Counted from the first letter of the stretch, positions 25,558 through 64,000 are shown. The stretch is DNA of 64,000 bases from an uncultured Spirochaetota bacterium (GCA_963783575.1 CAWAOD010000011.1:416001-480000); one strand, 5' to 3'. The notes: generated by a model not told the origin, from the letters alone. Made by a program: numbers and translations.

Positions 25558-25560
25558 AGT

Positions 25561-31740: not shown

Positions 31741-31752
31741 GATTATTTTATT

Positions 31753-31777
31753 TTCCGGCCGGGGACCCCGGCCGGAA
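31753..31777. other. Perfect GC-rich palindrome after the GSIII gene
   Basis: ttccggccgggg-a-ccccggccggaa; no following U-tract on the + strand. Confidence 0.7.
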
Positions 31778-31874
31778 GTATTATTACCAGTCGATTTTTT
31801 ATATTTTACAAACTTGTTTTTTTAAACGTTTTTATATATAATATACGACTTGTATACTATGTGAGGTAATACTT

Positions 31875-32971: not shown

Positions 32972-33138
32972 GTTTTATAATAAATAATCAATATGCTTTT
33001 GAAGTTTAAAATAATAAGGAAGTTTTTTCAAACAGTAGTGTGTTGATTTTGTTTGGAGAATTATTTATAATATAAGTTATTCTATTAGGTTATAGCAATT
33101 AAACTTGTACGAAATTGAAATTATCAAAGGAGATTTTG

Positions 33139-33972: not shown

Positions 33973-34025
33973 CGGTTAAATATCTTAAGATATTACAATC
34001 GCTCCATAATTCAGAGGAGAAGTAT

Positions 34026-35559
34026 ATGTTGTTTCAACCTAATGTATCGAATTATTATGATTTCAAGGTTGTAAGAGATTATGATAGATGTATAAAGTGT
34101 ATGGGTTGTGTAACACAATGCTCATACGATGCAAATTTCTGGGATGAGGACAGGCAGAAAATCGACACAATTCATAGTAAATGTATCGGATGCCACAGGT
34201 GTGAGGTATTTTGCCCCACCGATGCGATTTCCATTCAGCATAATCCTTCGAAATTCAGGGAAAACGGTTATTGGTCAAAAAGGGATATAAGAAACATCTA
34301 CATGAACGCAGAAACCGGCGCTATTGGGACAACAGGAATGGGCAATGACCTCGCTACTCAACCGGTTTATTTCGACAGGATACTTTTTGACGCCTGCCAG
34401 GTTACAAATCCATCCATAGATCCTTTAAGGGAACCGATGGAGCTGACCACTTATATTGGAAACAGGGGAAGAAGCCTGGAAATCAGAGAAGAAAACAATA
34501 AATACAATATTATCAACCCGGTTATGAAGCTTTTAAAGCTTGAAGTACCTATTATTTTTGGCCCTATGTCATATGGTTCGATCAACCTGAATGTTCAAAA
34601 AGCCCTGGCTGGTGCGGCAAAAGAACACGGCACATTATGGAATACAGGCGAAGGAGGTCTCCACAGGGATTTATACAAATATGGGGAAAATACAATAGTT
34701 CAGGTCGCTTCAGGACGTTTCGGCGTTCATGAAGAATACCTGAAAGCCGGCGCCGCGATTGAGATAAAAAATCGGCCAGGGGGCTAAACCAGGAATAGGC
34801 GGGCATCTGCCCGGTGAAAAAGTTCTTGAGGAAGTATCAAAAACAAGAATGATACCTCAGGGCAGCGATGCCATTTCACCGGCGCCGCATCATGACATTT
34901 ATTCGATCGAAGATTTAAGACAGCTCATATATGCGTTAAAAGAAGCTACCAGGTATGAAAAGCCCGTTCAGGTAAAAGTATCCGCCGTTCATAATATAGC
35001 GGCGATTGCTTCAGGTATTGCAAGAGCCGGGGCGGATATTATTGTTGTTGACGGATACCGGGGAGGTACCGGTTCAACCCCGACCATAGTGAGGGAACAT
35101 ACCGGAATACCGATAGAACTTGCGATAGCTGTTGTTGATGAAAGACTCAGGCAGGAAGGGATCCGAGAAAATGTCGGGCTTATAGCTGCCGGAGGAATCC
35201 GGAGCGCTTCGGATGTTTTAAAAACAATCGCCTTGGGCGCAGATGCGGTTTATATAGCTACGGCGGCTTTAATGGCGGTCGGCTGTACTTTATGCCAGCA
35301 ATGTCATACGGGAAGGTGTGCATGGGGAATTACAACCAATGATGCATACCTTGCGAAACGACAAAACCCGAACATAGCCACGGAACAGGTTTCCAATCTT
35401 CTACGCGCATGGAAAATAGAGATGAAGGAAGTGCTTGGAAGTATGGGGTTGAATGCCATAGAAAGCCTGAGGGGCAACAAAGAAAGGCTCAGAGTGGTTG
35501 GAATGAACGATAAGGAAATGGAAGTCCTTGGTTTAAAACAAGCCGGTTTAGGAATGTAG
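34026..35559 (+). CDS. Archaeal-type glutamate synthase FMN subunit with N-terminal 2x[4Fe-4S] (GltB2/GlxD-like), frameshifted at A6 34766-34771
   Basis: Two CxxCxxCxxxC motifs, MSYGS, NTGEGG, QVASGRFGV. Removing one A gives [22 protein letters not shown]; then SPAPHHDIYSIEDL and CTLCQQCHTGRC. Confidence 0.93.
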
Positions 35560-35568
35560 GAGGTTATT

Positions 35569-36090
35569 GTGAAGCGAGTTTATCCTGTTGAAGAATACTG
35601 CATAGCTTGTCATCTATGTGAAGTGGCCTGTATTGTTGAACATTCAAAATCTAAAAATATATTTTTTGCATTTTCGGAAATGCCGAAAGTCAATTCAAAA
35701 ATAGAAGTAGAGATGAGCGGCCCGCTTTCATTTTCGGCCAGTTGTAGAATGTGCGAACACCCTGAGTGTGTGGAAGCCTGCCCAGTTGCGGCTGTTACCC
35801 GGAATGAAGAAACCGGCCTTGTTAAAATTCTGGAAGACCGCTGTATCGGATGCTGGATGTGCATAATGGCCTGCCCGCAGGGTTCGGTAACAACTCGTGT
35901 TGATGAGGAAGCGAACCTGCGAGTATCTGACAAATGTGATTTATGTGAAAATAGAACATCCGGACCGGCCTGTGTTCAGGCCTGTCCCAATGATGCTTTG
36001 ATTTTTGAAGACCGCGATTTTGAATCAAAAGGACAACCGACACTCCGGGGTTCATATCATGTTTTCAGCGAAGGAACAATGGAAGATTAA
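35569..36090 (+). CDS. 4Fe-4S dicluster protein (CooF/HydN-like)
   Basis: CIACHLCEVAC, CRMCEHPECVEACP, CIGCWMCIMACP, KCDLC; GTG start with GGAGG RBS. Confidence 0.9.
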   Translation: MKRVYPVEEYCIACHLCEVACIVEHSKSKNIFFAFSEMPKVNSKIEVEMSGPLSFSASCRMCEHPECVEACPVAAVTRNEETGLVKILEDRCIGCWMCIMACPQGSVTTRVDEEANLRVSDKCDLCENRTSGPACVQACPNDALIFEDRDFESKGQPTLRGSYHVFSEGTMED

Positions 36091-36152
36091 AATCATAATG
36101 AATGTTTTGATAAAATCAATTGTTTTCCCAAATGATATCAGGAGGAAAATTA

Positions 36153-37448
36153 ATGCAAAAAGCGAAATTTGTCACTATCGGATATTCAGCCGGTGCGATA
36201 GGAATGATTGAGGCTATTAGGAAAAACGATAAAGCAAACAGAATTCTTGCCGTCTCAAAGGAAAAATACCCGGTCTACGGAAGACCGGCGATCCTGAATT
36301 ATGTTATGGGACAGATTAATGAGGACGGACTGTTTTATGGCGGAATAGGCTATACAAAGCAAAAAAATGTTGACACAATACTTGGGGTCGAAGTTGTAAA
36401 AATCAATCCCGATATGCATACACTCGAATTATCTGATGGAGAAACTGTAGAATATGAGAAACTTCTGCTTAATTTAGGCGGTAAACCGATTAGTCCGCCG
36501 ATTCCCGGAAAGGAGCTGGAAGGTGTTCTCAATTTCTTTAGCCTTGATGATGCAAAAAATATGATGATGCAGGTTAGAGAAGCCGGCGCAAAAATAGCAG
36601 TTGTAATCGGCGGAGGGCTTATAGGACTTAAGGCGGCGGAAGCCCTGATTAAGCTTGGTGTAAAAGTTTCGATTGTCGAACTTGCTCCTACGATTTTGAG
36701 CCGGGCACTGGATCCGGTCAGTTCAATGCTTATGGCCGATAAAATGAAGAAACTTGGAGTTGTGATAATAACCGAAACAAGTGTTGCGGAAATCATAGGA
36801 GATAAAAAGGTTAAGAAAGTGAAACTAACGAATGGACAGATAATGGATACCGATATGGTATATATGTCGATCGGTGTGAATCCGGACTCAAAACTGGCTG
36901 AATCGGCAGGGATTGCTGTTAACAGGGGTATTGAGGTTGATCGTTTCATGAGTACTAATAAAAAAGATATATTTGCCGCAGGGGATGTTGCTAAAGGCTA
37001 TAATTTCTTGACTGGAGAGAATATGGTTCTTGCGATCTGGCCTGTGGCGCGGAAGATGGGTTTTTATGCCGGATTAAATATGATGGGGGCCGGAGTTAAG
37101 TATGACGGTTCCATATTATTGAATTCCCTTTATTTTGAGGATCTATATACTATATCTTATGGAGAAACTAACCCCCAGAATCCTGAAAAATACGAAATAC
37201 TTGAAAAATTTTATTCCGATGGAAGATCTTATAGAAAATTCTTTATCAAAGATGACTTAATCCATGGTGCTGTTTTTGTTAACGATATCTCAAGGGCTGG
37301 AATTGTAAAAGGGCTGATGTATGAAAAAATACCTGTATCTATGTACAAGGATTTTCTTCTGAAAAAGGATTTTTCATTTATTCATTTACCGAAGTATTAC
37401 AGGGACAATGTTTACAGGAAACCTTACACTGAGCTTATTGCCAGATAA
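36153..37448 (+). CDS. NAD(P)/FAD-dependent oxidoreductase (NirB/rubredoxin-reductase-like)
   Basis: IGYSAGA, VIGGGLIG, IFAAGDVA. GGAGG RBS before ATG 36153. Confidence 0.88.
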   Translation: MQKAKFVTIGYSAGAIGMIEAIRKNDKANRILAVSKEKYPVYGRPAILNYVMGQINEDGLFYGGIGYTKQKNVDTILGVEVVKINPDMHTLELSDGETVEYEKLLLNLGGKPISPPIPGKELEGVLNFFSLDDAKNMMMQVREAGAKIAVVIGGGLIGLKAAEALIKLGVKVSIVELAPTILSRALDPVSSMLMADKMKKLGVVIITETSVAEIIGDKKVKKVKLTNGQIMDTDMVYMSIGVNPDSKLAESAGIAVNRGIEVDRFMSTNKKDIFAAGDVAKGYNFLTGENMVLAIWPVARKMGFYAGLNMMGAGVKYDGSILLNSLYFEDLYTISYGETNPQNPEKYEILEKFYSDGRSYRKFFIKDDLIHGAVFVNDISRAGIVKGLMYEKIPVSMYKDFLLKKDFSFIHLPKYYRDNVYRKPYTELIAR

Positions 37449-48212: not shown

Positions 48213-49899
48213 ATGGATGAAAAGATGAAAATCAAAGCCAGGATCAGGTATAAAATACTGCTTGTTGTCCTTCCGATACTTCTTTTAACATCCGTTTTTA
48301 TCGGACTTACTGCTTATTACTCGTCAATGAACGGCATTACAGGGATTGCAAAAGAATTGCTGGGTTATAAACTGAATGAAATTTATAAATATTCCGCACG
48401 TCAAACATCATTAATAAAGGAAATGAATCTATCCGGAAACAGCGACCTTATGGATAATGCCAAAAATTCGGTTTTGGATTATGTAAAAACATTATTAACT
48501 TCGGAGACCGGAGCATTTCTTGCTTTGAATACTAATGCAGGAATGGATTTTGGAACTTTATCAAATTCAAGCCATGCCGGGTTGAGTAATATACTTTCAA
48601 TTATCAACGGGAAAACCAGCGGATGGATTGAATTCAACCTGTCAGGAATCAGAAGGGTAGGCGTTTTCATAAAATATATTGAATGGAACGATTATTTTAT
48701 CATATTCGATAACAGGGATTCTTTTTACAGCAATGTCAACCAGATCCTGAACTACCTGATTATCATTTTAACCTGCAGCATTATCATATCTTCAATTTTA
48801 CTTTTATATTTTATATCAAAAATAACGCAGCCTATAATCGATTTTGTGAAAACCATCCAGGACATTACCGATCGGATGGACCTGACCCGCAGGGTAAAAA
48901 TTTATTACAGGGATGAGATCGGATATCTTGCAACATATTTTAATAATATGATATCTGACCTGGAGTCCGCATACAATCAGATCAAGAATTATGCTTATCA
49001 AACCGTCCTGGCCAAAAATAAAGAAGAAAGGATAAGGTTTATTTTTCAGAAGTATGTACCTTCGGAAGTCATAAATAATATTCTTAATATAGCGTCGGAT
49101 ACCATGCTGATCGGCAATAAACAGAAAATTTCTGTATTATTTTCCGATATCCGGAGTTTCACAACAATTTCTGAAGGTTTAACCCCTGAAGAATTGGTGT
49201 TATCATTGAACGCGTATTTCAATAAAATGGGTTCCGAGATAAGCCGTTTCAACGGGATTATAGATAAATTTATAGGCGATGCAATAATGGCGATTTTCGG
49301 GGGCTCCGCTTGTACGCCCGAATGATGCCGAGAATTCCATATCGGCGGCATTATTTATGATCAGGTCTCTTGATGATTTTAATAAAATTCAGACGGAAAA
49401 GGGTAAGGTTAATTTTAAGATCGGAGTGGGTATTAATACCGGGGAAGCAATTGTCGGGAATATCGGAAGCGAACAAAAGATCGATTACACTGTAATTGGA
49501 GATCCTGTCAACCTTGCGTCGCGTCTTGAGGGCCTGACAAAAAAATATCATTCAAGGATAATAATCAGCGAATTTACCAAGAATGAAGTTGGGCAGGATA
49601 AGTTTTATTTCAGGGAACTTGATAATGTTAGGGTTAAGGGTAAAAATGAACCTGTAAAAATTTATGAGCCTTTTTCCATTGAAGAAGCCTCGCCTTTGTT
49701 TTCATATTACCAGGATTTTCAGAAAGCCCTTGAATTATATTATTCGGGAAACTTTCAGGAATCTGTTATTATTTTCAATAAATTGATCGAAAAAAAACAC
49801 GATGATTATCTTGGATTTCTATACAGGGAACGATGCGAGTATCTGATGCTGAATCCCCCGGAAAAATGGGACGGAGTAGAAACCTGGACCGAAAAATAA
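48213..49899 (+). CDS. Two-TM HAMP class III adenylate cyclase, frameshifted at G5 49299-49303
   Basis: RDEIGYLA (HAMP), FSDIRSFT, DKFIGDAIMAIFG|APL after removing one G, DYTVIGDPVNLASRLE, VKGK. Confidence 0.92.
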
Positions 49900-50450: not shown

Positions 50451-51038
50451 TTAGACTTTAAATATAACTATCAAACATTTTAAATAATCAACCATCTTGT
50501 TCTCCAGGTCATAGCCGTTATCATGCAGTACCCAGTCGTATACTATTCCTCTGCCCATAATAAACAAATAGTCGGCTATATCTCCCGGAGGCATTTCATT
50601 TTTGATCTCGTTCTTTTCCTGGCCTTCTTTAATGATTTTTTCAAGCAGGATATGCATATATCTGCCTTTTGCAATGAAGAGTTTGTTTTTCGAGTTATAT
50701 AACTGGCTAATAGCGTCTAATCCCTGATTACTATTATATTTCGCGTAAACCCTGAAGAAGAAAACGATTTGATCGACGGAACTTTCCTGGACCAGTAAAT
50801 TTGAGACTTCATTCTTAAAATAATCATCTGCAATTTTATAAATTTCATAAAAAATAGCTTCCTTAGAACTGAAATAATGATAAAAAGCCCCGATTGATAC
50901 TCTGGTTTTTTTACAAATATCTTTTATCGTAACTTTATCGAAACCTTTCTTATTTATCAGTTCCATTGCGATTTTATAAATATACTCTTTTGATTTTATT
51001 GCCTGAAGCTTTCTTTTAGTAAAAGATTTTTGTTTCAT
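50451..51038 (-). CDS. TetR/AcrR family regulator
   Basis: KGFDKVTIKDIC...VSIGAFYHYFSSKE HTH; divergent from mmsA. Confidence 0.94.
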   Translation of the reverse strand: MKQKSFTKRKLQAIKSKEYIYKIAMELINKKGFDKVTIKDICKKTRVSIGAFYHYFSSKEAIFYEIYKIADDYFKNEVSNLLVQESSVDQIVFFFRVYAKYNSNQGLDAISQLYNSKNKLFIAKGRYMHILLEKIIKEGQEKNEIKNEMPPGDIADYLFIMGRGIVYDWVLHDNGYDLENKMVDYLKCLIVIFKV

Positions 51039-51194: not shown

Positions 51195-51253
51195 TTGACT
51201 TCTTTTTTATATCAATATAAAATGAATATATTCAGTGAACATGTTCGGTGAAT
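51195..51253 (+). promoter_or_regulatory. Sigma70 promoter with overlapping tandem operator (copy 1)
   Basis: TTGACT-17-TAAAAT, then aatgaatatattcagtgaacatgttcggtgaat (51221-51253). Confidence 0.85.
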
Positions 51254-51272: not shown

Positions 51273-52790
51273 ATGAGTAGTGTAAAAAAATTGAGTTATT
51301 TTGCCGGTGGAAAATGGATCGAATCGAAGACATCAAAGTATATGGATATCTGGAATCCGAGCACCGGAGAAAAGCTGGCAGAGGCTCCTTGCTGTACTCC
51401 TGAAGAGGTGGAGTCTGCCGTTATAGTAGCGAAAAAAGCTTTCCCTGAATGGGCGGCCACTCCTGTGCTGAAAAGAGTCCAGGTACTCTATAAATTCAGA
51501 GAGCTTTTGCTGAAGAATCTTGATGAACTTACAATGATTTGCTGTAAGGAACATGGTAAAGTATGGGAAGAATCAAAAGGAGATATTCTCAAAGTCATAG
51601 AGCCTGTCGAGATGGCTTGCGGCGCTCCGGTCTTGATGATGGGCGAATCTCTGATGAATACATCAACCGGTTTTGATACCGTACTTTACCGGGAACCGGT
51701 CGGAGTGTTCGCCGGTATAGCTCCATTCAACTTCCCTGCCATGATTCCAATGGGATGGATGATGCCGCTTTGCATTGCTACCGGAAATACAATCGTTATA
51801 AAAGCCTCCAGCAGTACGCCGATGACATCGATGAGGTGCGCAGAACTCCTTCAGGAAGCCGGACTTCCAAACGGTGTGGTAAATATTGTAACTTGCAGCC
51901 GGAACGAGGCGGAGATATTCTTAAAACATCCTGATGTGAGGGGGATATCCTTTGTAGGGTCGACATCGGTTGGATTACATATTTATTCAACCGCAGCAGC
52001 CAACGGGAAGAGGGTTCAGGCTCTATGCGAGGCGAAAAACCATGCGCTTGTTATGGAGGATGCCGCGCTGGAAAGGACTGCACGCGGAATAATCAATTCC
52101 GGGTTCGGTTGCTGCGGAGAAAGATGCATGGCGCTCCCTGTAATTGTAGCACACGAAAAAATAGCAGATAAACTTGTTTCTTTTCTTGTAAAATATGCAA
52201 ACGAATTGAAGATCGGACCGGCTTATGATAAAAATTCGGAGCTCGGACCTGCTGTAACCGAAAGTCAGAGAAAATCGATTCTGGAATGGATCGAGACCGG
52301 CATTAAGGAAGGCGCCAAACTGGTGCTGGACGGCCGGAAAGTGACTGTAAAGGGATATGAAAATGGTTTCTATCTCGGCCCGACAATATTCGATCATGTC
52401 GGACCGGAAATGTCTGTCGGAAACGATGAAATATTCGGACCGGTAATCTGTGTGAAGCGGGTAAAGAGCTTCGAGGAAGGGCTTGAGCTGATGAACAGCA
52501 ACCGGTTCGCAAACGGCTCCGTAATCTATACCCAGAACGGCTATTACAGCCGTGAATTCGCTTCCAGGACACACGGCGGAATGGTCGGAATCAATGTCGG
52601 AATACCCGTCCCTGTTGGGATATTCCCATTTTCCGGTCATAAGGATTCATTCTTCGGCGATCTTCATACTCTCGGGAAAGACGGAGTCCGTTTCTATACG
52701 GAGACAAAGGTTGTAACAACAAAATGGTTTGATGAAGAGGACATGAAAAAAACCAAGGTGGACAGTTGGGACGGAACGATATCAAGGTAA
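51273..52790 (+). CDS. mmsA: CoA-acylating (methyl)malonate-semialdehyde dehydrogenase
   Basis: PFNFPAMIP, SFVGSTSVG, GKRVQAL.EAKNH, GERCMA, GINVGIPVP, SFFGDLH. Confidence 0.94.
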   Translation: MSSVKKLSYFAGGKWIESKTSKYMDIWNPSTGEKLAEAPCCTPEEVESAVIVAKKAFPEWAATPVLKRVQVLYKFRELLLKNLDELTMICCKEHGKVWEESKGDILKVIEPVEMACGAPVLMMGESLMNTSTGFDTVLYREPVGVFAGIAPFNFPAMIPMGWMMPLCIATGNTIVIKASSSTPMTSMRCAELLQEAGLPNGVVNIVTCSRNEAEIFLKHPDVRGISFVGSTSVGLHIYSTAAANGKRVQALCEAKNHALVMEDAALERTARGIINSGFGCCGERCMALPVIVAHEKIADKLVSFLVKYANELKIGPAYDKNSELGPAVTESQRKSILEWIETGIKEGAKLVLDGRKVTVKGYENGFYLGPTIFDHVGPEMSVGNDEIFGPVICVKRVKSFEEGLELMNSNRFANGSVIYTQNGYYSREFASRTHGGMVGINVGIPVPVGIFPFSGHKDSFFGDLHTLGKDGVRFYTETKVVTTKWFDEEDMKKTKVDSWDGTISR

Positions 52791-52835
52791 ATAAAGGCAT
52801 TTATCAGTGGTAATGACTTTAAAAAGGGATAAAAA

Positions 52836-53406
52836 ATGAAAAAGATAAAAACCGGGGTATTTATTCCACTGCCAGTGGAACCGATAGTTTTAGTTGGCGC
52901 TAATGTTAATGGAAAGCCAAATTATATGGCTGTGGGATTTGTCGGCGGTGTAAACCATAATCCGGATATTATTTGCGTTAGCCTGAACAAAAATCATTAC
53001 ACGCCGAAGGGAATCATCGAGAACGGTACATTCAGTATCAACGTACCTTCTGTCGAATATGTTACAGAAACTGATTACTGCGGATTGGTCAGTGGTCGAG
53101 AAGTAGATAAGTCCGGAATTTTTACCACTTTCTATGGTGAACTTGAAACAGCGCCCATGATTGAAGAGTTCCCGATTGTCTGTGAATGCCGCTATACAGG
53201 CCAAAGAATGGAGTTCTCCATGGATATCGCATATTTCGGAGAAGTAGCGCAAGTGTATATTAACGAAAATCTTGTACGGGAAAACAATGAGATTGATGTC
53301 ATAAAAGCTAATCCAATATGTTATGCACGTATCGATTAAAAAATATCGTTCTTTAGGGGAAGAAGTAGGTCAGGGGTGGATGACAGGCAAGCTGTATAAG
53401 GCCTAG
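52836..53406 (+). CDS. Flavin reductase / flavoredoxin-like protein, frameshifted near 53336-53343
   Basis: GKPNYM, DYCGLVSG, APMIEE. Removing one base continues into KYRSLGEEVGQGWMTGK to TAG 53406, a family-like C-terminus. Confidence 0.85.
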
Positions 53407-53547
53407 CTTTTGTGATAAAATATAACGGCTATGGACGCCGGGATAAAAGCGGCTAAGGTATCAGATTATCCGGATGTGATCGAGAAAAAATTACTTCCGC
53501 CGGATGACAGGAAACTTTATATTCCAAATAATATATAGGAAAAATCT

Positions 53548-54390
53548 ATGTTTAAAATACTGGAAAAATGTTGTCTCGGGCCAAAGATTCAACTGGCTGA
53601 GATTGATGCTCCGCTGATAGCTGAGAAAGCGATGGCAGGCCAGTTTGTCATCATACGAATGAAGGAAAAAGGAGAAAGAATTCCGTTAACAATTGCCGAT
53701 TATAACAGGGACAAAGGTACAGTAACGCTTGTTTTTCAGGAATTGGGCAAATCTACGCATCAGCTTGGAAGCATAAAGGCCGGCGATTATCTGATCGACA
53801 TGCTTGGCCCTCAGGGAAACCCTACGGAGATAGAAAATTTCGGAAATGTCGTTGTGATCGGCGGAGGGATTGGGATAGCGCCGGTATTTCCTCTTGCAAG
53901 AGAACTGAAAAAATCGGGTAATAAAGTATTGTCTATTATCGGCTACAGGTCTAAAGATCATGTTTTCTGGGAAGATAAAATGCGTTCGGTTTCCGATACG
54001 GTTATGGCAATGACTAACGATGGATCTTATGGTAAAAAAGGTCTTGTCACCGATGCTCTGATTAATCTCCTGATAAAAAGTGAAAAAATTGACAGGGTTT
54101 TCGCCATTGGACCGGCTGTCATGATGAAGGCGGTAACAAAGATGACAAAACCATTAGGGATTCCCACGATAGTCAGTCTGAACTCCCTTATGGTTTGTGG
54201 AATGGGGATGTGCGGAGCATGCAGGGTAACCGTCGGAGACAAGACTAAATTCACCTGCATGGATGGAGCAGATTTTGAGGGGAGTGATGTGGATTTCGAT
54301 GAACTGATGAAACGCCTTGACACATACAAACCGCAGGAAAAGTCATGTATGGAAAACTGGGATGTGGAGTGTTCCAATGTCCATCAGTAA
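53548..54390 (+). CDS. nfnA: Electron-bifurcating transhydrogenase small subunit (NfnA/SudB-like)
   Basis: GQFVI, ERIPLTIAD, GGGIGIAP, MVCGMGMCGAC, CMDG. Confidence 0.88.
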   Translation: MFKILEKCCLGPKIQLAEIDAPLIAEKAMAGQFVIIRMKEKGERIPLTIADYNRDKGTVTLVFQELGKSTHQLGSIKAGDYLIDMLGPQGNPTEIENFGNVVVIGGGIGIAPVFPLARELKKSGNKVLSIIGYRSKDHVFWEDKMRSVSDTVMAMTNDGSYGKKGLVTDALINLLIKSEKIDRVFAIGPAVMMKAVTKMTKPLGIPTIVSLNSLMVCGMGMCGACRVTVGDKTKFTCMDGADFEGSDVDFDELMKRLDTYKPQEKSCMENWDVECSNVHQ

Positions 54391-55783
54391 AAAAGCAGTG
54401 CCGATGCGGGAACAGCCTGCAGGGGAAAGAAGAAATAATTTCAATGAAGTTCCTTATGGATATTCTATTGAAGAAGCGATAACGGAGTCAGAAAGATGCC
54501 TTCAATGTAAGAATAAACCATGCATTGAAGGCTGTCCTGTAAACATTGATATCCCGGGTTTTATCCTTGCCGTAAAGCAGAAGGAATTTATGAAGGCCAG
54601 CGAAATAATTCATGCTACCGACGCTCTTCCCGCAATAACCGGCCGTGTATGTCCTCAAGAGGAACAGTGCCAATGCAGATGTGTTGCCGGAAAAATTGGA
54701 GACCCCGTGGCAATTGGAAGACTTGAGAGGTTTGTAGCCGACTGGGAACTCGCAGAGAGAAATAAAGGAAATGTTAAAATACCGGGAAAAAATATTACAA
54801 AAACCGAAAAAATAGCGGTCATCGGTTCAGGCCCTGCCGGGGTTTCTTGCGCTGCCGACCTCGCTATGATGGGTTATGAAGTTACTGTTTACGAAGGTTT
54901 TCATAGCCTTGGCGGTGTACTTGTATATGGAATTCCCGAATTCAGGCTGCCAAAGGATATTGTAAAAACTGAAATTGAATCTTTGAAGAACATGGGGGTC
55001 TATTTTCAGACGAATGTTCTGATCGGGCGTGCTCTGACAATTAATGACCTCTTTAAAAAAGGTTTTAAGGCTGTTTTTATCGGAACAGGTGCCGGATTAC
55101 CGGTTTTCATGGGTATACCTGGTGAGAACCTTAATGGCGTCTACTCAGCCAACGAGTATCTTACAAGGGTTAACCTTATGAAGGCATATGAATATCCTCA
55201 TAATTCCGAAACACCTGTTCTGATGGGGAAACGAGTAGCTGTTATAGGCGGAGGAAATGTGGCAATGGACGCCGCGAGGACGGCAATACGGCTGGGCGCC
55301 GAACATGTTTATTTGATTTACAGAAGAACGGAAAAGGAAATGCCGGCCAGAGTAGAAGAAGTGCACCATGCGAAGGAAGAAGGCATTGAATTTCAGTTTT
55401 TATCTGCGCCGTTGTATTATATCGGCGATGAAACGGGTTTTATAGAATCCGTGAAGTGTATCAGAATGGAGCTTGGCGAACCGGATTCATCTGGAAGGAG
55501 GAGGCCTATAGAAATCAAAGGATCGGAATATATGCTTGAAATCGACCAGGTGATTGTCGCTATAGGAACTACGCCCAACCCTCTGATTAAAAAAACGACA
55601 CCGGAACTGACAACAAAGAAGCATGGTGAAATAGAAGCCGATGAGGATGGGAAGACATCTATGGAAGGAGTTTTCGCTGGAGGCGATATTGTTACCGGAG
55701 CAGCTACTGTTGTCACAGCCATGGGCGCAGGAAAAAAAGCGGCAGCGGCTATAAACTCCTATATCGTTTCCCAACAAAACTGA
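54377..55783 (+). CDS. nfnB: Electron-bifurcating transhydrogenase large subunit (NfnB/SudA, GltD-like)
   Basis: RCLQC, CP, GRVCPQE.QC, GSGPAG, GGGNVAMD, YRR, FAGGD; overlaps nfnA; ATG 54377. Confidence 0.88.
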   Translation: MSISKKAVPMREQPAGERRNNFNEVPYGYSIEEAITESERCLQCKNKPCIEGCPVNIDIPGFILAVKQKEFMKASEIIHATDALPAITGRVCPQEEQCQCRCVAGKIGDPVAIGRLERFVADWELAERNKGNVKIPGKNITKTEKIAVIGSGPAGVSCAADLAMMGYEVTVYEGFHSLGGVLVYGIPEFRLPKDIVKTEIESLKNMGVYFQTNVLIGRALTINDLFKKGFKAVFIGTGAGLPVFMGIPGENLNGVYSANEYLTRVNLMKAYEYPHNSETPVLMGKRVAVIGGGNVAMDAARTAIRLGAEHVYLIYRRTEKEMPARVEEVHHAKEEGIEFQFLSAPLYYIGDETGFIESVKCIRMELGEPDSSGRRRPIEIKGSEYMLEIDQVIVAIGTTPNPLIKKTTPELTTKKHGEIEADEDGKTSMEGVFAGGDIVTGAATVVTAMGAGKKAAAAINSYIVSQQN

Positions 55784-55895
55784 CAGGGATTGTTAAGATA
55801 AAATTTAATAGCAGTCTCAAGTAATACTAATAGCATCTTCATACCAGCAGTATTTACTGTAATGCGAATTTTAGATAAATGGTTAAATATACAAT

Positions 55896-55924
55896 TCCCC
55901 CGGTTCGATAAACTTACCGGGGGA
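55896..55924. repeat. REP-like hairpin between the convergent operons
   Basis: tcccccggt-tcgataaactt-accggggga; core ggttcgataaacttacc resembles the 39024 elements. Confidence 0.65.
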
Positions 55925-55942
55925 TGGGCATTATTTAGTAAT

Positions 55943-57597
55943 TTAGTTTTTTCCTAACGCTGGAATTGATGGCAAAGTTGTATACATTCTGTCTCCAATA
56001 TTGTTAGGATCGAAAATCTCTTTAATTTTTGCCTGGTACCAGAATACAAGCGGTTGTTTCAATTTTCTCAATTCTTCATGAATCTTTTCGTCTGTCCAAC
56101 CGACTTGCAGGTATATAAATTCTTTCCCGGGCGGATAGCCGTTAGAAACTGCGTCTCTTACCGCATCTTCCATGTGTTTGATGGCAGCAGCGTTGGAAGC
56201 AGCATCGGCTGGGTCATAAGAAACAAACTGTTCGAATCCCATTGCTCCTCCCCCGTAAGGCCGCTTCCGCAACCCATTAAAGCATCGCCTCCGCACTGAA
56301 CAAGATTTCCGCTTTCAGCATCCCTTGCCAACCCTGCGATGGCGATAGGGGCATAACCTTTTACAAGATCAGGGGTTCCGGATTGCATCCAGCTGCCGAG
56401 GTAGCCGCCCACCCAGACAAAATTCAGGTGCTTATGCCCCAATCTTTGCAGATACATATTTGTAAATTCGGCCATTTCCTGTTCACAGTATTTTTTTACC
56501 TTAAAGCCGCCGGTTTCTTTTAGAATTTCATCAAGAATTTTATCCTGAAGTTCAATATCTTTAATGGAGCGGCCTGAAAGAATTATCTGAAATGAAATTC
56601 TCATTTCTTCCGTGAGCTTTTTAATTTCCGGATCATTGACCATTGTCTCAACATCATTGAGTGTTTTTTTATAATCATTGTACATCAGCCAGAAGGCTGG
56701 AGCCAGATTAGCGCCGGCAAGATTGAATTGTCTATGGAAGATATAACCTATTTCATTATCATAGATTTTGTAATAACTGTCGGCCCATGCGTCCCAGTTC
56801 GGCATTGCAAGAGTATAAACCCTGAAATTATCCCCGACCGGCAGACGGTAGGCTGGAACAGTACCCTTTACATCCAATTTCGCCGGGCCATTCCAGGGGG
56901 ATAGTTTAATAGCGCATTTCGTATATACACCTAATCCGCCTCTTGAACCCATTACGCCTCTGAGTATACCCCTTATGCTCGATCCCGGGCCTTCGCTGCA
57001 GAAACACTCTCCGGTGGAATTGAATGAACCGATTGTTAAAACTTCACCTTCCGGAGTAACCCACTCCATACCAAGAAGGTTATCTGAATTATGTCCCATA
57101 TAATATGTGCTCGGTCCCGGTCCAAAGTAGGCGCAAGCGCTTGCCACAATCGATGTGGTTGATCCTGCCCCAATAATATTAAGATTCAATCCAAGTTTCA
57201 TTACTTCGGCTTGAAGTTGTGCACAGATAACATAAGGTTCAACTATCGCCACCATGTTTTTTTCATCGATTTTAATAATCTTGTTCATTCTTCTGAGATC
57301 CAGTTGGATTGTATCTTCACTGTCCTTTAAAGGCGCAGCCCAATGGTACCAGCCTGTTGAAATCGGTTTTAATTTTATTTTATATTTGTTGCATACTTTG
57401 GTAATTGCCTGTACCTCTTTTGTACTTTCAGGCATTATAACCGCAACAGGCCGGGGCATGAATTTACTGTAGTTTTTACGGACGGTTTCCGCCATCCATT
57501 CAAAAGCATAGGAATCGAGAAATGCCGGATCATCTGTTATATATTCTGGTCCTACTATATCTTCAAATTCACGGTAAGCTTCTTTTGATAACGCCAT
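55943..57597 (-). CDS. FAD-binding oxidoreductase (VAO/PCMH superfamily), frameshifted near 56250-56258
   Basis: PVAVIMPESTKEVQ, LDLRRMNKI, VEPYV, GGLGVYTK; C-terminal IFDPNN in the second ORF. Confidence 0.85.
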
Positions 57598-57618
57598 ATT
57601 TAATCCTCCTTACAAAAT

Positions 57619-58890
57619 TTACACAGCCAGGTCTATAAGTTCCATGATGTCAAATATTTTCATTTTTCTATTTCTTCCATTTTCGGCTTCAATAAAATTA
57701 TCCTCACACCATGGGCAGGCAGTCACAAGAGCTTCGGCACCGGTAGATTCAGCTTCCTCTATTCTTTCCGAGGCGGTCGCGCTTGAAAACTCGGGATAAG
57801 CCTCTTTAACTCCGCCACCGGCTCCGCAACACCACGCGGATTCCCTATTGCGCTCCATTTCAATCAGTTCCAGACCCGGTATCGCATTTAAAATATTTCT
57901 CGGCTGATCATAAATTCCATAAGCGCCGATATATCTTGGTCTTGGAGGATCATAGATAACAGCCTGACCGAAAATCTTTTTTTCCTTGCCATTCCACTCA
58001 ACATAAGGCTCTCCCTGTCTTCCCAGATAACAGGGATCATGGTAAGTTACTTTCATATTTACTTTTTTAGTAAATTTTAACTTACCTTCTTTAATAAGCT
58101 TATCCGTAAATTCAACCATGTGCATCACCTCAATTTTTGAGCCGTCCTTTGCATAAAGCCTTTTAAAAGTATGGTAACAATCGGCACATGGAGTAACAAC
58201 TGTCTTTATTCCGGCTTTTTCCCATGCGGCTAAATTACTATTCAGGCCATTTTCATAATCTTTTTTGTAACCCATATGGTAGGCCCGGCCGCCGCAGCAT
58301 CCCTCGTTTTGCCCGAAAATTCCGAAATCGATTTTTGCTTTTTGCATGATTCCGACAGAAATTCTGGCGATTTTTTGCAGGTCAGGATTATATGAATATT
58401 GACAGCCCGCATGAAAAACAACTTCGGCTTTTTCTTTTGAAAGGTCTTTAATTTTAAGATCTTTTGCCCAATCACCTCTTTTATCTTTAGGCTTTTTGAG
58501 CATATTGTTCAGTTTTCGATAGCCTTCCATAACCTTGTCATTCTGGGGTATTGTCTTTCCGTCTTCAACCAGTTTAAATCTCAATTCATGCAATGCCGCT
58601 AATGGTTCCATATCATAACGGCATATTTTACAGGTAACATCGCAGTTCCCACAGAGCTGGCATTTAAAAACGGAGTCTTTCACCTTATCGGTAACCTCGA
58701 TCCTGCCTTCCAGCAAAGATAACAAAGTCACCAGCCTTCCGCCGGCCGAATAAGAATGAAAATGATTATATTCTATACTCGGACACCCTTTTGCAAATCT
58801 CCAGCTTTTTATTTGATCAATAGGAATCCACTTGCAATAAGCGCATCTTGTACAACGTAACGCATCATTTTTATAATCTTCAAGCGCCAT
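57619..58890 (-). CDS. (Fe-S)-binding protein with two CCG domains (GlcF/HdrD-like)
   Basis: CTRCAYC, CQLCGNCDVTC, CCGG, TPCADC, YHDPCYLGR, CCGAGGG, TACPWC. Confidence 0.9.
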   Translation of the reverse strand: MALEDYKNDALRCTRCAYCKWIPIDQIKSWRFAKGCPSIEYNHFHSYSAGGRLVTLLSLLEGRIEVTDKVKDSVFKCQLCGNCDVTCKICRYDMEPLAALHELRFKLVEDGKTIPQNDKVMEGYRKLNNMLKKPKDKRGDWAKDLKIKDLSKEKAEVVFHAGCQYSYNPDLQKIARISVGIMQKAKIDFGIFGQNEGCCGGRAYHMGYKKDYENGLNSNLAAWEKAGIKTVVTPCADCYHTFKRLYAKDGSKIEVMHMVEFTDKLIKEGKLKFTKKVNMKVTYHDPCYLGRQGEPYVEWNGKEKKIFGQAVIYDPPRPRYIGAYGIYDQPRNILNAIPGLELIEMERNRESAWCCGAGGGVKEAYPEFSSATASERIEEAESTGAEALVTACPWCEDNFIEAENGRNRKMKIFDIMELIDLAV

Positions 58891-58909
58891 AATATATTCC
58901 TCCTATAAT

Positions 58910-60382
58910 TTAATTAAAACACAATTTTCCCGGATTCATAATATTGTTAGGGTCGAATAATTTTTTGATTTTTCTCAAAGTAATTTTACTGTCAGCATCT
59001 TTTTGATACATCAAATCCGACCACATCCCATACGGTCTTGAAAAATAAGCTCCATCCAGCGAGTGCAAACTGCTTGCTTTCATGAATAATTCTTTTACCA
59101 TTGCCGTCTCTTCCTTATCACCGGGATTATAGGGAAGATTGAACTCACAATGATAGGATGCTCCCTGGTGTTGCGGCTGCAGGTAGACGCCTATATCAGT
59201 TGAAGGATAATTAAATTCTTCAGCCGCCGAGTTCATTGTCTTTAAAAATTGAGGGGTTTTATCAAGTGTCGTCAAGAAAAATATATCAGTGCATCCGCCT
59301 TTGTAATTAAATTTCCAGTATTTTTCAGATGAAGGGTTCAAAATAGTATCCAGAATTACATTGTTACTTACCTGTGAAATACCGGTAAGGGCTTCCAAAC
59401 CATGCTGTTGTGCATAAGCAATGATATCACTCTCCATAACTTCCACTTTTTCTTCAGGAAATAACGCTCTTCCCGATATACCGATGAGCATTGTCCATAA
59501 TGGTAAAATTTTCTTAAAATTATCAATTTTTTTCGCATCTTTCCCGATCATATTTGCAAGCTGGGAATTATTGACTATGATAACTTCATCACCCATCCTT
59601 TGTTTCTGGATTTCATAGGAAAAATCAATAAGATTTTCGAGCTTTTTAGCAGGGATAATTAAGAGTTTGCGAATGCTCGGTAATATTTCACATTTTACAG
59701 AAGCCCAGAATACGATTCCCATTGTACCTTGTGAACCTGTCAATATTTTAATAAAATCGGTCGCATTTGGACCTTTAGGGTCTACCTGTACGGTACCGGA
59801 TTTCCATTGATCTTCCAGATTAAGGGAAGAATTTCCGGCATCACCGGTATAAATAATATCTCCGTTCCCGAACACTACTCCACAAGTTCTTAATGGCTCT
59901 GTAAGCGAATATTGATATCTTGGTATTGTAGTAGGCTGTCTTTCGAGAAGACTTGCTATTACAGATTTGTTTGCTTTTGGAAGCAGAGGCATTGTTACTC
60001 TTAAGCCTTCCTTAGCAAGAGCCGTTTCCAGCTGGCTATAAGTTACACCGGGTTCTATGACTGCTATCCTATTCCTGCTGTCAATTCTCAGGATTTTGTT
60101 CATTCCGCTCAAATCTACAATTACAGCGCTGGTAACGCTGGGAACAGTGTCGCCGTAAAAATGGGGCGATCCTGAACTGACAGGTATAAGCGGAGTTTTT
60201 GTTTCATTCGCCCATTTTACAAGTTCCTTAATTTGATTTACTCCGGTTGGTTTTACTATAAACCATGGTTTAATCTGCTTAACGAAGCTGTTATCACTTT
60301 TGTAATTATCAAGAATCTCCGGGTTGTCTATAACACTGCTGTTATCGAAAATCTTTAAAAGACTCTCTTTGGTGCTGTTCAT
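58910..60382 (-). CDS. FAD-binding oxidoreductase (VAO/PCMH superfamily)
   Basis: IVDLSGMNKIL, IEPGVTY, GSQGTMGIV, FDPNNIMNPGKL. Confidence 0.88.
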   Translation of the reverse strand: MNSTKESLLKIFDNSSVIDNPEILDNYKSDNSFVKQIKPWFIVKPTGVNQIKELVKWANETKTPLIPVSSGSPHFYGDTVPSVTSAVIVDLSGMNKILRIDSRNRIAVIEPGVTYSQLETALAKEGLRVTMPLLPKANKSVIASLLERQPTTIPRYQYSLTEPLRTCGVVFGNGDIIYTGDAGNSSLNLEDQWKSGTVQVDPKGPNATDFIKILTGSQGTMGIVFWASVKCEILPSIRKLLIIPAKKLENLIDFSYEIQKQRMGDEVIIVNNSQLANMIGKDAKKIDNFKKILPLWTMLIGISGRALFPEEKVEVMESDIIAYAQQHGLEALTGISQVSNNVILDTILNPSSEKYWKFNYKGGCTDIFFLTTLDKTPQFLKTMNSAAEEFNYPSTDIGVYLQPQHQGASYHCEFNLPYNPGDKEETAMVKELFMKASSLHSLDGAYFSRPYGMWSDLMYQKDADSKITLRKIKKLFDPNNIMNPGKLCFN

Positions 60383-60411
60383 CTATTACCTCCCTTGAAA
60401 ATTAGAAATAT

Positions 60412-60443
60412 GTTACGAGTGGCATTTATCTGCCACTCGTAAC
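60412..60443. other. Perfect 13 bp intercistronic hairpin
   Basis: gttacgagtggca-tttatc-tgccactcgtaac between the MFS and first FAD gene. Confidence 0.75.
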
Positions 60444-60502
60444 TGTTAAACTTTTATCCCTTGGCTATCCCTAGGATTATTATAAGTTATGTTTATCTGA
60501 AT

Positions 60503-61720
60503 TTATGCCTGCTGCTGTTTCTTTATCCTATTGGCAACAGGCAAAGCCAATATTCCTCCCAAAAGTATAATCGGGATCAAAACGATAAGCACCTGTGCCG
60601 CGGTTTTTCCACTACCAAGCAAAATACCGGCAAGCATAGGCCCACAAAAAGTACCAAGGCGTCCGAAGGTTACAGCTGCTCCTACACCTGTATTTCTTAT
60701 TTCAGCAGGATAGCAAAGCGGCGCGAAAGCTAGAAGTATACACTGTGCGGCGCCTACTGTCAGGCCCAGGAAAAAGCCTACCGGCAATATTTGACCGAAT
60801 TTAAGTGTAGCAAAACCTATAACAGCCAGGAATACTGCCAGTCCTATATATGCGGTTATTGGAGTGGAGTAAATTAATTTCTTATCCAGGAGATATCCCG
60901 CCAGAGCAGCTCCTATACAAAAACCCAGGTTAAAAATAATCTGGACAACCTGAGCATTCTGCTTGGATAATCCCATGGCTTCCATTAATGAAGGCATCCA
61001 GCCTAAAAGTAAATACATGACAAGCAGTGTCATAAATGTAGCCAGCCATATGGATATCGATGTGGCTGCCTGACCCTTTCCAAAGATTCCGGAAAATACA
61101 TTTTTGCCTAATGCCTTCGATTCATCTTGCTTGCCGGATGATATTGGTGATTCTTTAGGAAGTAAAAAAGCAAGAAGGGGCGCTACAATAATAGGAGCCA
61201 GACCGCCTATAAGGTAAACTGGCTTCCAGTTATTGCCGAAAGCTCCGATCATCATTACCACGCTTGAAAGAACTCCTCCTATCGGGATGGCGCTGTAAAT
61301 AAATCCCACAGCTCTTTTCTTTAGTTGTACCGGGCTGTGGTCACTGGCCATTGCTATAACAAGCGGCATGGCTGCCCCAAGTCCGAGACCGGTAAAAAAC
61401 CTTGCTATCATAAGCGTCGAAAGTCCTGTGGCAAACACCGTTGAAATAGATGAAATACCGAATAATAAAATACCTGTTATTAGGACCGGTTTACGTCCGA
61501 AACGATCGGCCAGAAAACCGCCTATTATAGCAGCAAGAAAGACACCAATTGCGCTTGAGCTAAGAAAAACGCCCATCTGGGCAGGCATAAGATGAAAAGC
61601 CGGTGCGATTCTTGGCGCAGAAACACCGGCAGCCTGGAGATCAAATCCCTCCAGTAAAATAACAAGAGCACATAAAACAATGACACGATAGGTGTGAAGC
61701 GATTTTACAGAGTTTTCCAT
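60503..61720 (-). CDS. MFS transporter, aromatic acid:H+ symporter family (MhpT-like)
   Basis: LEGFDLQAAGVSAP, ADRFGRKPVL, ARFFTGLGLGAAMP, YLLLGWMPSL, TGVGAAV.FGRLG. Confidence 0.88.
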   Translation of the reverse strand: MENSVKSLHTYRVIVLCALVILLEGFDLQAAGVSAPRIAPAFHLMPAQMGVFLSSSAIGVFLAAIIGGFLADRFGRKPVLITGILLFGISSISTVFATGLSTLMIARFFTGLGLGAAMPLVIAMASDHSPVQLKKRAVGFIYSAIPIGGVLSSVVMMIGAFGNNWKPVYLIGGLAPIIVAPLLAFLLPKESPISSGKQDESKALGKNVFSGIFGKGQAATSISIWLATFMTLLVMYLLLGWMPSLMEAMGLSKQNAQVVQIIFNLGFCIGAALAGYLLDKKLIYSTPITAYIGLAVFLAVIGFATLKFGQILPVGFFLGLTVGAAQCILLAFAPLCYPAEIRNTGVGAAVTFGRLGTFCGPMLAGILLGSGKTAAQVLIVLIPIILLGGILALPVANRIKKQQQA

Positions 61721-61740: not shown

Positions 61741-61798
61741 ATTCACCGAACTAGTTCAGCGAACAGATTCATTCTATATTAATTTGAAAAAAAGTCAA
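61741..61798 (-). promoter_or_regulatory. Sigma70 promoter with overlapping tandem operator (copy 2)
   Basis: Minus strand TTGACT-16-TAGAAT, then aatgaatctgttcgctgaactagttcggtgaat (61773-61741). Confidence 0.85.
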
Positions 61799-61976: not shown

Positions 61977-62647
61977 ATGAGTAATATATTGGAACAGCTG
62001 GCTTTATGTATCGAGCGCGGTAAGATGGATGCAAATTCTTCCTATCCTCCGGATATGAAAGGGCAAAAAGGAGCCGATGAATTGACAAAAGAGGCTATTG
62101 CGGCTAATATTCCGGTAAATGATATACTTGAAAAAGCCCTCATAACAGGAATGAACAATATCGGAATCAAATTTAAGGAAAACAAGGTTTTTGTTCCTGA
62201 TTTGATGATGGCGGCAAAGGCTATGAAAACAGCGATGAATTATTTAAAACCCTATTTTCAGAAAGGAGAGGCAAAAAAGAAAGGTACATTGATTATAGGA
62301 ACAGCGGCAGGTGATTTGCATGATATAGGAAAAAAGTCGTGGTTGCCCTGATTATTGAAGGAGCCGGATGGGAAGTAATAGACCTTGGCGTTGATGTTAA
62401 AACGGATAAATTCCTGAATGCAATCAATGAAAAACCTCAAGCGGTGGTAGGTTTAAGTTCTTTGTTAACAACCACAATGATGTCCATGGCTCATTCTGTT
62501 AAAGCCATAAAGGAGAAATTCCCGGGCACAAAGATTATTGTAGGCGGAGCCCCCGTCACCAAGGCGTTTGCCGATAAAATCGGGGCTCATGCTAACGCAT
62601 CCGATCCTCAAAGCGCAATAAAAGTCCTTAATGATTTGGTTTCATAA
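61977..62647 (+). CDS. Corrinoid (cobalamin-binding) protein, frameshifted at A6 62330-62335
   Basis: VFVPDLMMAAKAM cap domain, GDLHDIGK, VIDLGVDV, SSLLTTTM, IVGGAPVT. Confidence 0.92.
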
Positions 62648-62729
62648 TCAAATTTGCAATTGAAAATATTAGAATATCAATGCAGAAGTGGAAAAATACT
62701 GAACAAAATAATATTCAAGAAAGAGGAGT

Positions 62730-63449
62730 ATGTTAGAAAATATAGAAAAACCTTTTATATTTAAAATAGATATTGATAATGATTTTGAAATAACAAAAGG
62801 GTCATTATTGGAATTCATGGGATACCGATCCGAATCTTATCCCGAAGTACTGGATGATTGTTTTGAAATATTATTTAAAAATCTTTCAAGGCATTATAAA
62901 CCTCAAGCAGGATTCTGCATTTGTAAAAAGGTCAGTGCGGCTGGAAAAGGTTTTATTTGTGAAGATGTCTTTTTTTCAACCGGGAAAATAATCGCCGAAA
63001 GGCTGAGACGCTCGGAGCATCTTGCTTTTTTCATATTGACCGCAGGAGCCGAAATGGATGAATGGTCCGGTAAATTGTTCAGTGAGGATAATACATTATT
63101 GGGTTATATAGTCGACTGCGCCGGTTCCGAATTGGCTGAAAATCTTGCGGATAAAGTCCAAAATAAACTGGAGGAGATTTGCAAGGCGGAAGGGCTTTTT
63201 ATAACAAACCGTTATAGCCCGGGATATTGCGGATGGGACACAAAAGAACAAAAGAAGCTTTTTTCATTTTTCCCTGATAATTTCTGCGGGGTAAGTTTAA
63301 ATGAGTCATGTTTGATGAACCCTATTAAATCTATTAGCGGAGTTATCGGGCTGGGTAAAAAGGTCGCAAAACAGGAATACCAATGTTCAATTTGCGGCCG
63401 TAAGGATTGTTTTAAAAAAACAATAAAAAAAGCAGGTAAATATGAATAA
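62730..63449 (+). CDS. Stand-alone methionine synthase activation (AdoMet-binding) domain
   Basis: FILTAG, DCAGSELAE, RYSPGYCGW, MNPIKSISGVIG; terminal CxxCxxxxC. Confidence 0.88.
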   Translation: MLENIEKPFIFKIDIDNDFEITKGSLLEFMGYRSESYPEVLDDCFEILFKNLSRHYKPQAGFCICKKVSAAGKGFICEDVFFSTGKIIAERLRRSEHLAFFILTAGAEMDEWSGKLFSEDNTLLGYIVDCAGSELAENLADKVQNKLEEICKAEGLFITNRYSPGYCGWDTKEQKKLFSFFPDNFCGVSLNESCLMNPIKSISGVIGLGKKVAKQEYQCSICGRKDCFKKTIKKAGKYE

Positions 63450-64000
63450 GATTGTAAGCGAGCTTAAAACAGGAGAAATAATGATTTCAGATGGTGCATG
63501 GGGAACATTTCTTCAGCAGAAAGGCTTAAAAGTTGGGGATTGTCCGGAGTTCTGGAATATTACAAACCGGGAAGATGTTCTTGATATAGCGGAATCGTAC
63601 GTTAAAGCCGGGGCGGATATGATTGAGTCGAATAGTTTCGGCGGCTCAAGAATTAAGCTTGATTATTATGGATTGGGGGAACAAACGGCCAGAATCAATG
63701 AAACGGCGGCGGTTATTTCCCGGAAAGCGGCAGGAGATGACCGGCATGTTATCGCGTCAATAGGACCCACCGGAAAAATGCTGATAACCGGAGATGTGAC
63801 AGAGGAACAATTGTATGATGTTTTTAAAGAACAGTCTATGGCCCTGGAAAAAGGCGGTGCAGACGCAGCTTGTATTGAAACTATGTCGGCTCTGGATGAG
63901 GCGGTCATCGCAGTAAAAGCAGTAAAGGAAAATACAGGTCTTGAAATTTTAGCATCTTTTACTTTTGAACAAAAAGATAGAAAATATTATACGATGATGG
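63442..64000 (+). CDS. Homocysteine S-methyltransferase domain protein (runs off the window)
   Basis: Manual translation: ISDGAWGTFLQ, CPEFWN, AGADMIESNSFG, ASIGPTG, IETMS. Absent from the ORF track. Confidence 0.92.
   Translation, partial: MNKIVSELKTGEIMISDGAWGTFLQQKGLKVGDCPEFWNITNREDVLDIAESYVKAGADMIESNSFGGSRIKLDYYGLGEQTARINETAAVISRKAAGDDRHVIASIGPTGKMLITGDVTEEQLYDVFKEQSMALEKGGADAACIETMSALDEAVIAVKAVKENTGLEILASFTFEQKDRKYYTMM

Follow-up and report, generated by a model that had tools for sequence, protein, structure and literature searches.

An uncultured Spirochaetota bacterium (genome 4.9 Mb, 90% complete) carries, in the 64,000-nucleotide stretch analyzed here (G000:C11:416001-480000, hereafter the window), three consecutive genes for a flavin adenine dinucleotide (FAD) protein, a CCG iron-sulfur (Fe-S) protein and a second FAD protein (FAD1, CCG Fe-S subunit and FAD2, together the trio), in one locus with mmsA, the gene for a coenzyme A (CoA)-acylating (methyl)malonate-semialdehyde dehydrogenase. 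The trio is a member of a large family of anaerobes without an assigned reaction, and mmsA appears to have been recruited to it repeatedly. Because the recruited enzyme has a narrow specificity, this is the best evidence that the trio product would be (methyl)malonate semialdehyde. The reading we favor, with a confidence a little short of an even chance, is that hydroxyphenylpropionates are split oxidatively at the aryl-C3 bond, which would yield a polyphenol together with malonate semialdehyde.

Profile searches found all the genes named in a preliminary description of this region (mmsA, flavin reductase, nfnAB, FAD1, CCG, FAD2 and the MhpT-like carrier), and showed that they form two convergent operons, not one: mmsA, flavin reductase and nfnAB on the + strand, and the carrier, FAD1, CCG Fe-S subunit and FAD2 on the - strand.

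50451..51038, - strand: TetR-family regulator, divergent from mmsA (PF00440)
51231..51252: palindromic operator, first copy, just 3' of a sigma-70-like promoter (TTGACT 51195-51200, TAAAAT 51218-51223)
51273..52790, + strand: mmsA (TIGR01722, 563 bits, cut-off 448.5)
52836..53339, + strand: flavin reductase/flavoredoxin-like protein (PF01613)
53548..54390, + strand: nfnA; 54374..55783, + strand: nfnB (NF004862 and TIGR01316, above cut-off)
55943..57597, - strand: FAD2, VAO/PCMH-superfamily flavoprotein, ~551 aa, frameshifted (PF01565)
57619..58890, - strand: CCG Fe-S subunit (GlcF/HdrBC-like), 423 aa (PF13183 and two PF02754)
58910..60382, - strand: FAD1, VAO/PCMH-superfamily flavoprotein, 490 aa (PF01565 and PF02913)
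60503..61720, - strand: MhpT-like aromatic acid:H+ symporter (MFS), first gene of the trio operon (NF008586, 392.9 bits)
61742..61763: palindromic operator, second copy, 3' of the MFS promoter

Family and recurrent linkage to mmsA

The FAD1 search returned 4785 relatives among 8000 scored candidates, and the relatives of FAD2 formed 256 clusters at 50% identity (E<=1e-30). Of 327 genome loci, the 79 best were examined; of 525 metagenome loci, found in a scan that took in 22 of 64 parts, the 80 best (159 loci in total). The two sets have at least five sequences in common, and related loci are not independent. Complete trios were seen in 72 of the 79 genome loci and 54 of the 80 metagenome loci, and the misses were largely on short contigs. 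The hosts included Holophaga foetida and other Acidobacteriota, Thermoleophilia, Dehalococcoidia, Bacillota, Myxococcota, Alphaproteobacteria and one Promethearchaeota archaeon; the nearest record bearing the trio was a Spirochaetota metagenome-assembled genome (L003). Trio matches were found in 74 of 401 sampled genomes from the phylum of Desulfatitalea and in 1 of 60 relatives of the host itself.

An mmsA gene accompanied the trio in 22 of the 79 genome loci and 16 of the 80 metagenome loci (38 of 159, from eight phyla), and three further mmsA genes were cut by contig ends. For the background, 36 matches in 48 genomes (~159 Mb) gave about one per 4.4 Mb, which means about 0.5% per 21-kb locus. 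When the neighboring aldehyde dehydrogenases were scanned, TIGR01722 was the best-scoring profile for 21 of 22, and 16 were above its cut-off. A quick tree of 41 proteins placed the trio-adjacent mmsA genes in at least four separate clades, namely an Acidobacteriota-rich clade, the clade of the window, a Chloroflexota clade with Arg for Lys107 and a long archaeal branch; some were 34-42% identical to the window mmsA, one sat among beta-alanine-context genes, and trio-linked mmsA was found on both halves of the FAD1 tree. The supposed conservation of the trio-mmsA linkage was thereby borne out. The window mmsA was the only copy found in its genome (a single tblastn match), and its product has the catalytic Cys283 and the adjacent Arg282 (ERC motif), with Lys107 in place of the Arg of 1T90.

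Several other partners named in the preliminary description were not supported. AAHS transporters were found in only 5 of 159 loci, too few for a regular companion of the trio, and two supposed pathway components likewise found no support: NfnAB occurred in 2 of 159 loci, both of one sequence, and the flavoredoxin/flavin reductase in 1 of 159. NfnAB is possibly an electron sink of this host, and a second nfnAB copy (69%) lies on contig C13. The claim that iol genes are absent stood, with no iolD match at cut-off in the genome; the absence of Etf stood for the locus but not for the whole genome, in which etf genes lie on C14, and EtfB was present in 11 of the 159 loci.

Some further features of the family were seen in passing. 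In many loci of Chloroflexota type (8 of 80 metagenome loci), the gene after mmsA encodes a ~145-aa ferritin-like protein, for example:

L149:6086-6532: ferritin-like protein
L080:4875-5315: ferritin-like protein
L101:2686-3123: ferritin-like protein

Locus L206 (G446:C3:269624-275603) has two FAD1-type genes ~4.5 kb apart, suggesting tandem trios, and many genomes of its phylum have three or more copies. On Agrobacterium vitis plasmids (L194:14983-19477), a trio of 33-35% identity stands beside MFS, porin, P450, acyl-CoA ligase and aldehyde dehydrogenase genes, with no mmsA.

Comparison of the flavoproteins with known enzymes

FAD1 and FAD2 are only ~20% alike, and both matched general FAD-oxidase domains only. 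The trio has the same composition as GlcDEF and the D-2-hydroxyacid dehydrogenases (two FAD-oxidase genes and a CCG Fe-S gene), but the NCBIfam scores were far short of the cut-offs for GlcD (64.7/567.9 bits), GlcE (29/284), GlcF (44.7/333) and YdiJ (50.9/1350), the identity to glycolate dehydrogenase GlcDEF, LctD and LDHD was 16-18%, and gene order and neighbors differ. Solved relatives were 16-21% identical, and a close homologue that acts on glycolate or lactate, which would have spoken against the preliminary description, did not turn up. The lack of the EHG motif, noted in that description, was confirmed: SGEHG of the GlcD-type protein aligned to SRPYG in FAD1, and FAD2 has PPGKE at that place. 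HAGDGNLH aligned to QHQGASYH in FAD1, which means that the His/Glu metal site is replaced; we take HAGDGNLH and EHG to be the metal and catalytic motifs of GlcD and the D-2-hydroxyacid dehydrogenases. The near-invariant residues of FAD1 are E147-R148, Y400, Q402, H411, E413 and S448-R449-P450-Y451. The Fe-S subunit has two CxxCxxC motifs and two CCG domains (motifs at residues 13, 77, 198 and 354).

The best sequence matches among solved structures were PCMH, vanillyl-alcohol dehydrogenase and eugenol oxidase. With the 4-phenol oxidoreductases (PCMH PchF, VAO, eugenol oxidase and vanillyl-alcohol dehydrogenase), FAD1 gave TM-scores up to 0.82; the two-domain VAO/PCMH fold is shared, and the Glu-Arg motif and the C-terminal Arg are retained, whereas identity is 17-21% and the phenolate-pocket tyrosines appear not to be retained in position. 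The phenolate pocket of PCMH/VAO is Tyr-Tyr-Arg; by sequence alignment only, FAD1 retains the Arg as Arg449 (126 of 128), has Ser448 in place of a Tyr, with the near-invariant Tyr451 beside it, and varies at position 76 (R, H or Y). The redox partners also differ, with two flavoprotein types and a CCG Fe-S partner here, and a single flavoprotein type with cytochrome c or O2 there.

Link to plant phenolics

Among the 69 loci of at least 15 kb, 41 had at least one phenolic marker; the markers were picked after the neighborhoods had been seen, and the figure is a raw count. Over the 159 loci, we counted UroD-family methyltransferase in 23, cyclase and chalcone-isomerase-like proteins in 13 each, HcaR-like regulators and transhydroxylase-like Mo enzymes in 9 each, UbiD in 8, AAHS carriers in 5 and tannase/feruloyl esterase in 3. 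Together with corrinoid partners, UroD-family proteins remove the methyl groups of aryl ethers. One locus (L144) combined methyltransferase, UbiD, trio, mmsA, UbiX and transhydroxylase, and in the same-genus genome G049 the second trio has as neighbors a corrinoid activator, two UroD proteins, a methyltransferase II and a corrinoid protein. H. foetida has two trios with mmsA after each (the first mmsA is split) and three transhydroxylase homologues; it is reported to grow anaerobically on ferulate (PMC6486533).

In the window genome, at 90% completeness, queries for transhydroxylase, UbiD, cyclase and AOR found nothing, while the ring-degradation queries did find matches in H. foetida. For a host without ring-degradation matches, a side-chain product would explain its gain. 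The preliminary description had left the substrate broad, as an aryl or ether acid or a 3-hydroxy acid; the gene neighborhoods narrow it towards hydroxy-phenylpropanoids, and a plain 3-hydroxy acid loses probability. The known hydroxycinnamate side-chain routes (Fcs/Ech deacetylation, beta-oxidation, decarboxylation, reduction) concern the same likely substrate class. In the sections covered of one review, the routes remove C1 or C2 units or reduce the substrate, and none of them takes the whole C3 chain or employs such a trio (PMC9108465). The literature searches made turned up no account of the mmsA-linked trio.

As a separate observation, the Thermoleophilia loci (L009-L020, L056, L072-L079) have UroD/corrinoid methyltransferases, chalcone-isomerase-like, EthD-like and SDH-flavoprotein-like proteins, cyclase and AOR around the trio. 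These gene sets are apparently anaerobic polyphenol-degradation islands in a little-studied class.

Relation to the benzene-induced trio

Neither the likeness to a benzene-induced trio nor the second cassette (below) was part of the preliminary description. How benzene is activated without oxygen has long been debated. In the sections covered of two reports from 2026, the prime suspect is a trio of this family, the 'Magic' heterotrimer, an uncharacterized FAD/Fe-S/FAD trio that provides the most abundant proteins of anaerobic benzene degraders (ORM2 WAC08370/69/68, PMC13101534; BzS1_12970/80/90, PMC13416013). For BzS1, labelled 3-phenylpropanoate was found and a reaction of benzene with a C3 co-substrate was proposed, the options given there being enolpyruvate, acrylyl-CoA or the C5 compound glutaconyl-CoA (PMC13416013); malonate semialdehyde is not named among them in the sections covered, and the trio proteins are about equally abundant on toluene. 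As far as these sections go, the gene order FAD-FeS-FAD is identical, the sizes are close (488/~430/577 aa against 490/423/~551 here), the first subunit has both FAD domains and the third only the N-terminal one in both systems, and a TetR nearby and a phenylpropanoate link are in common.

Of the 56 FAD1 columns conserved at >=95%, a comparison by eye with the first 400 residues of the published ORM2 first subunit found 42 retained; the computed control counts were 23 and 20 with GlcD-type proteins and 41 with a family member of 33% identity. The identity is probably about one-third (an estimate by eye), far from the 63-89% of the benzene-degrader core group, and three of four short ORM2-type motifs were found together neither in the 390 proteins collected nor in 20 Desulfobacterota loci. 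The flanks differ as well: acyl-CoA synthetase, MaoC dehydratases and class-III CoA transferases, which flank the 'Magic' core, are absent around both cassettes, where mmsA, an aromatic-acid carrier and O-demethylase parts are found instead. The reaction direction is likely opposite, cleavage here and addition there. On this comparison, the two trios are distantly related members of one broad family with different neighbors; the architecture is already in print with its reaction unexplained.

Operator and second cassette

Both window operators lie directly 3' of a TTGACT-17-TA(A/G)AAT promoter. The operator pattern was derived from these two sites, so only the remaining sites serve as a test: with up to 3 mismatches there were 4 matches in the genome, against 0, 1 and 0 in three shuffled genomes, and a third copy at C11:487424, beyond the window, heads the second cassette. 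The shared operator of the preliminary description was thus recovered. In G049/L003, sites stand ahead of mmsA, carrier and FAD1, and five metagenome loci unrelated to these (L134, L139, L149, L158, L171) have the palindrome 50-160 bp ahead of FAD1. TetR homologues stood next to the trio in 7 of 159 loci, and L149 carries TetR and operator together. TetR likely binds the shared operator, and this pairing is only inferred because several TetR-homologue loci show no site; L004-L006, L008, L058 and L189 have TetR or its context and no operator match.

The second cassette (L001:3495-10446 = G000:C11:480494-487445) is just outside the window and under the same operator. Its order is carrier, trio and, as the last gene, a UroD/MtaA-family methyltransferase (L001:3495-4511), and its products are 81% (carrier), 54% (FAD1), 56% (CCG) and about 50% (FAD2) identical to the window paralogues. 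Both carriers missed the cut-off of the MhpT equivalog NF008586 (410) with 392.9 and 398.4 bits, so they may be called MhpT-like, with a substrate not fixed by the family score. The second cassette converges on the following genes, and no operator was found ahead of this block (61977..64000):

61977-62647, + strand: corrinoid protein, split
62730-63449, + strand: MetH reactivation domain
63442 onward, + strand: homocysteine methyltransferase

They are likely the methyl-transfer partners of the UroD/MtaA-family methyltransferase of the second cassette. Paired paralogous trios were also seen in G049, H. foetida (G002) and G004.

Proposed reaction and alternatives

In the proposed cleavage, FAD1, CCG Fe-S subunit and FAD2 likely form a soluble heterotrimeric dehydrogenase, and its substrate would be a hydroxylated 3-phenylpropionate (hydrocaffeate, dihydroferulate or a trihydroxy analogue) imported by the MhpT-like carrier. 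As in PCMH/VAO, the flavin would remove a hydride at the benzylic carbon of the phenolate to give a quinone methide, to which water would add; protonation of the chain-bearing ring carbon, perhaps at the second flavoprotein, would then release catechol, guaiacol or pyrogallol and OHC-CH2-COO-. The Fe-S subunit would pass the electrons to the carrier of the host (Nfn/ferredoxin or Etf), and MmsA would form acetyl-CoA, CO2 and NADH. The two paralogous cassettes would serve substrates that differ in ring pattern, with O-methyl groups taken off by the corrinoid methyltransferase. Chain and methyls would be used by this host and the ring excreted; Holophaga-like hosts would send pyrogallol into the phloroglucinol pathway. 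If cleavage holds, flavin chemistry would gain a new way of breaking C-C bonds. The reaction would also fill a gap in the routes by which lignin monomers are degraded in anoxic soils, and it might be used to produce catechol or pyrogallol from hydroxycinnamates.

An aryl-C3 bond made in the benzene branch and a C3 aldehyde consumed here beside phenylpropionate-type genes suggest one shared chemistry, the sequence of steps given above. In a wider generalization, the FAD/CCG/FAD family would be flavin-dependent aryl-C3 lyases/ligases, most of which would strip the intact C3 chain, as malonate semialdehyde, from lignin- or flavonoid-derived phenylpropionates, with the benzene-degrader member reversed. 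We regard this generalization as doubtful. If true, it would indicate a C3 unit at the malonate-semialdehyde or acrylate level as co-substrate of anaerobic benzene activation, and an anaerobic route not described before that is common among microbes of peat, sediment and digesters. The mmsA-linked subfamily offers neighbor clues on product and substrate, water-soluble candidate substrates and a cultured type strain with two copies, H. foetida DSM 6591.

A number of observations weigh against cleavage to malonate semialdehyde. To our knowledge, no flavoenzyme removes a whole C3 chain from an aryl ring. By fold, the subunits are equally near D-lactate dehydrogenase and PCMH, and the PCMH phenolate pocket is only partly retained, with Ser448 where PCMH has Tyr and a variable position 76. 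The marker labels are family-level, and the MhpT and HcaR scores are under their cut-offs. There was no mmsA in 121 of the 159 loci or in any of 20 more distant Desulfobacterota loci; 19 of 20 distant mmsA regions from the genomes searched had no trio, and many of these regions contain class-III aminotransferases, a beta-alanine context. Fifteen of the 48 genomes, which are incomplete, gave no mmsA match, including those of Bacillota and Desulfatitalea with some of the closest trios. Among the 69 loci of at least 15 kb, mmsA (22) and AOR (16) never occurred together, a test that overstates the exclusion as kin are not independent; it may reflect a different aldehyde or a different reaction.

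A PCMH-like enzyme that hydroxylates or desaturates the benzylic position of a phenolic C6-C3 compound or alkylphenol (or, run in reverse, reduces a hydroxycinnamate), with Fe-S replacing the cytochrome and no C-C cleavage, would fit the best solved-structure matches and the alignment of Arg449 and His411 to Arg and His of PCMH, presumably active-site residues. Its product would go to an alcohol dehydrogenase and AOR, and Zn-alcohol dehydrogenase and AOR were each present in 20 of 159 loci, but the window genome has no match to either; with mmsA moved to a later or parallel step, both its repeated recruitment from separate clades and the operator common to mmsA and both cassettes go unexplained, and we hold this reading to be unlikely. 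Chemically easier than C-C cleavage would be the oxidation of a 3-substituted propionate (for instance an aryloxypropionate, an N-substituted beta-alanine or an acid derived from a chromanone) at the carbon beside its heteroatom (aryl-O, N or S), with hydrolysis of the hemiacetal or imine to malonate semialdehyde. The superfamily has precedents in cytokinin dehydrogenase and ether chemistry, class-III aminotransferases occur in 3 of 159 loci, and the chalcone-isomerase-like and cyclase neighbors suit flavonoid C-ring fragments. No common natural substrate could be identified, however, and carrier and regulator resemble phenylpropionate-type ones; we consider this explanation quite improbable. 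The least probable of the readings is a GlcDEF-like dehydrogenase that feeds MmsA directly from 3-hydroxypropionate or 3-hydroxyisobutyrate, its aromatic neighbors merely reflecting shared niches: the metal-binding His/Glu and EHG are replaced, two 50%-identical paralogues per genome make poor sense for a single small acid, and the trio has MhpT-like, HcaR-like and O-demethylase genes in its transcript or next to it.

Frameshift in FAD2 and other features of the assembly

The FAD2 open reading frame at 56158-57597 (479 aa) is cut off by a frameshift near 56254, and its C-terminus is found in 55943-56254. Of the FAD2 homologues, 117 of 119 are at least 540 aa long and run on into the tail region of the window in another frame. 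Against the closest relative (L003), DNA identity is 92% and the alignment has a single 1-bp gap, located near 56254 next to a G run; the downstream piece has 15 synonymous and 2 non-synonymous changes. The FAD2 paralogue of the second cassette is also frameshifted. Six other window genes look split (4279-5810, 18054-19198, 31875-32971, 34026-35559, 48213-49899 and 61977-62647), five of them confirmed by continuity of Pfam/NCBIfam domains; they include glycerol kinase, Fe-alcohol dehydrogenase, a glutamate synthase domain, adenylate cyclase and the corrinoid protein. Because five further genes are split inside domains, the FAD2 break is most likely an assembly error of the long-read type, and the split genes in this assembly are likely sequencing errors.

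Contigs C17 (13 kb, 49% GC) and C7 (49 kb, 52% GC) stand apart from the remainder of the genome (33-39% GC) and are possibly bin contamination; a split UroD-like gene lies on C17, as does a hydroxyisobutyrate-dehydrogenase-like match. Elsewhere in the window, translations, with a profile scan on two pieces only, assigned 24097-37448 to a nitrogen-assimilation block with GlnA type I, a GlnE-like adenylyltransferase, GlnA type III and a multi-gene archaeal-type glutamate synthase.

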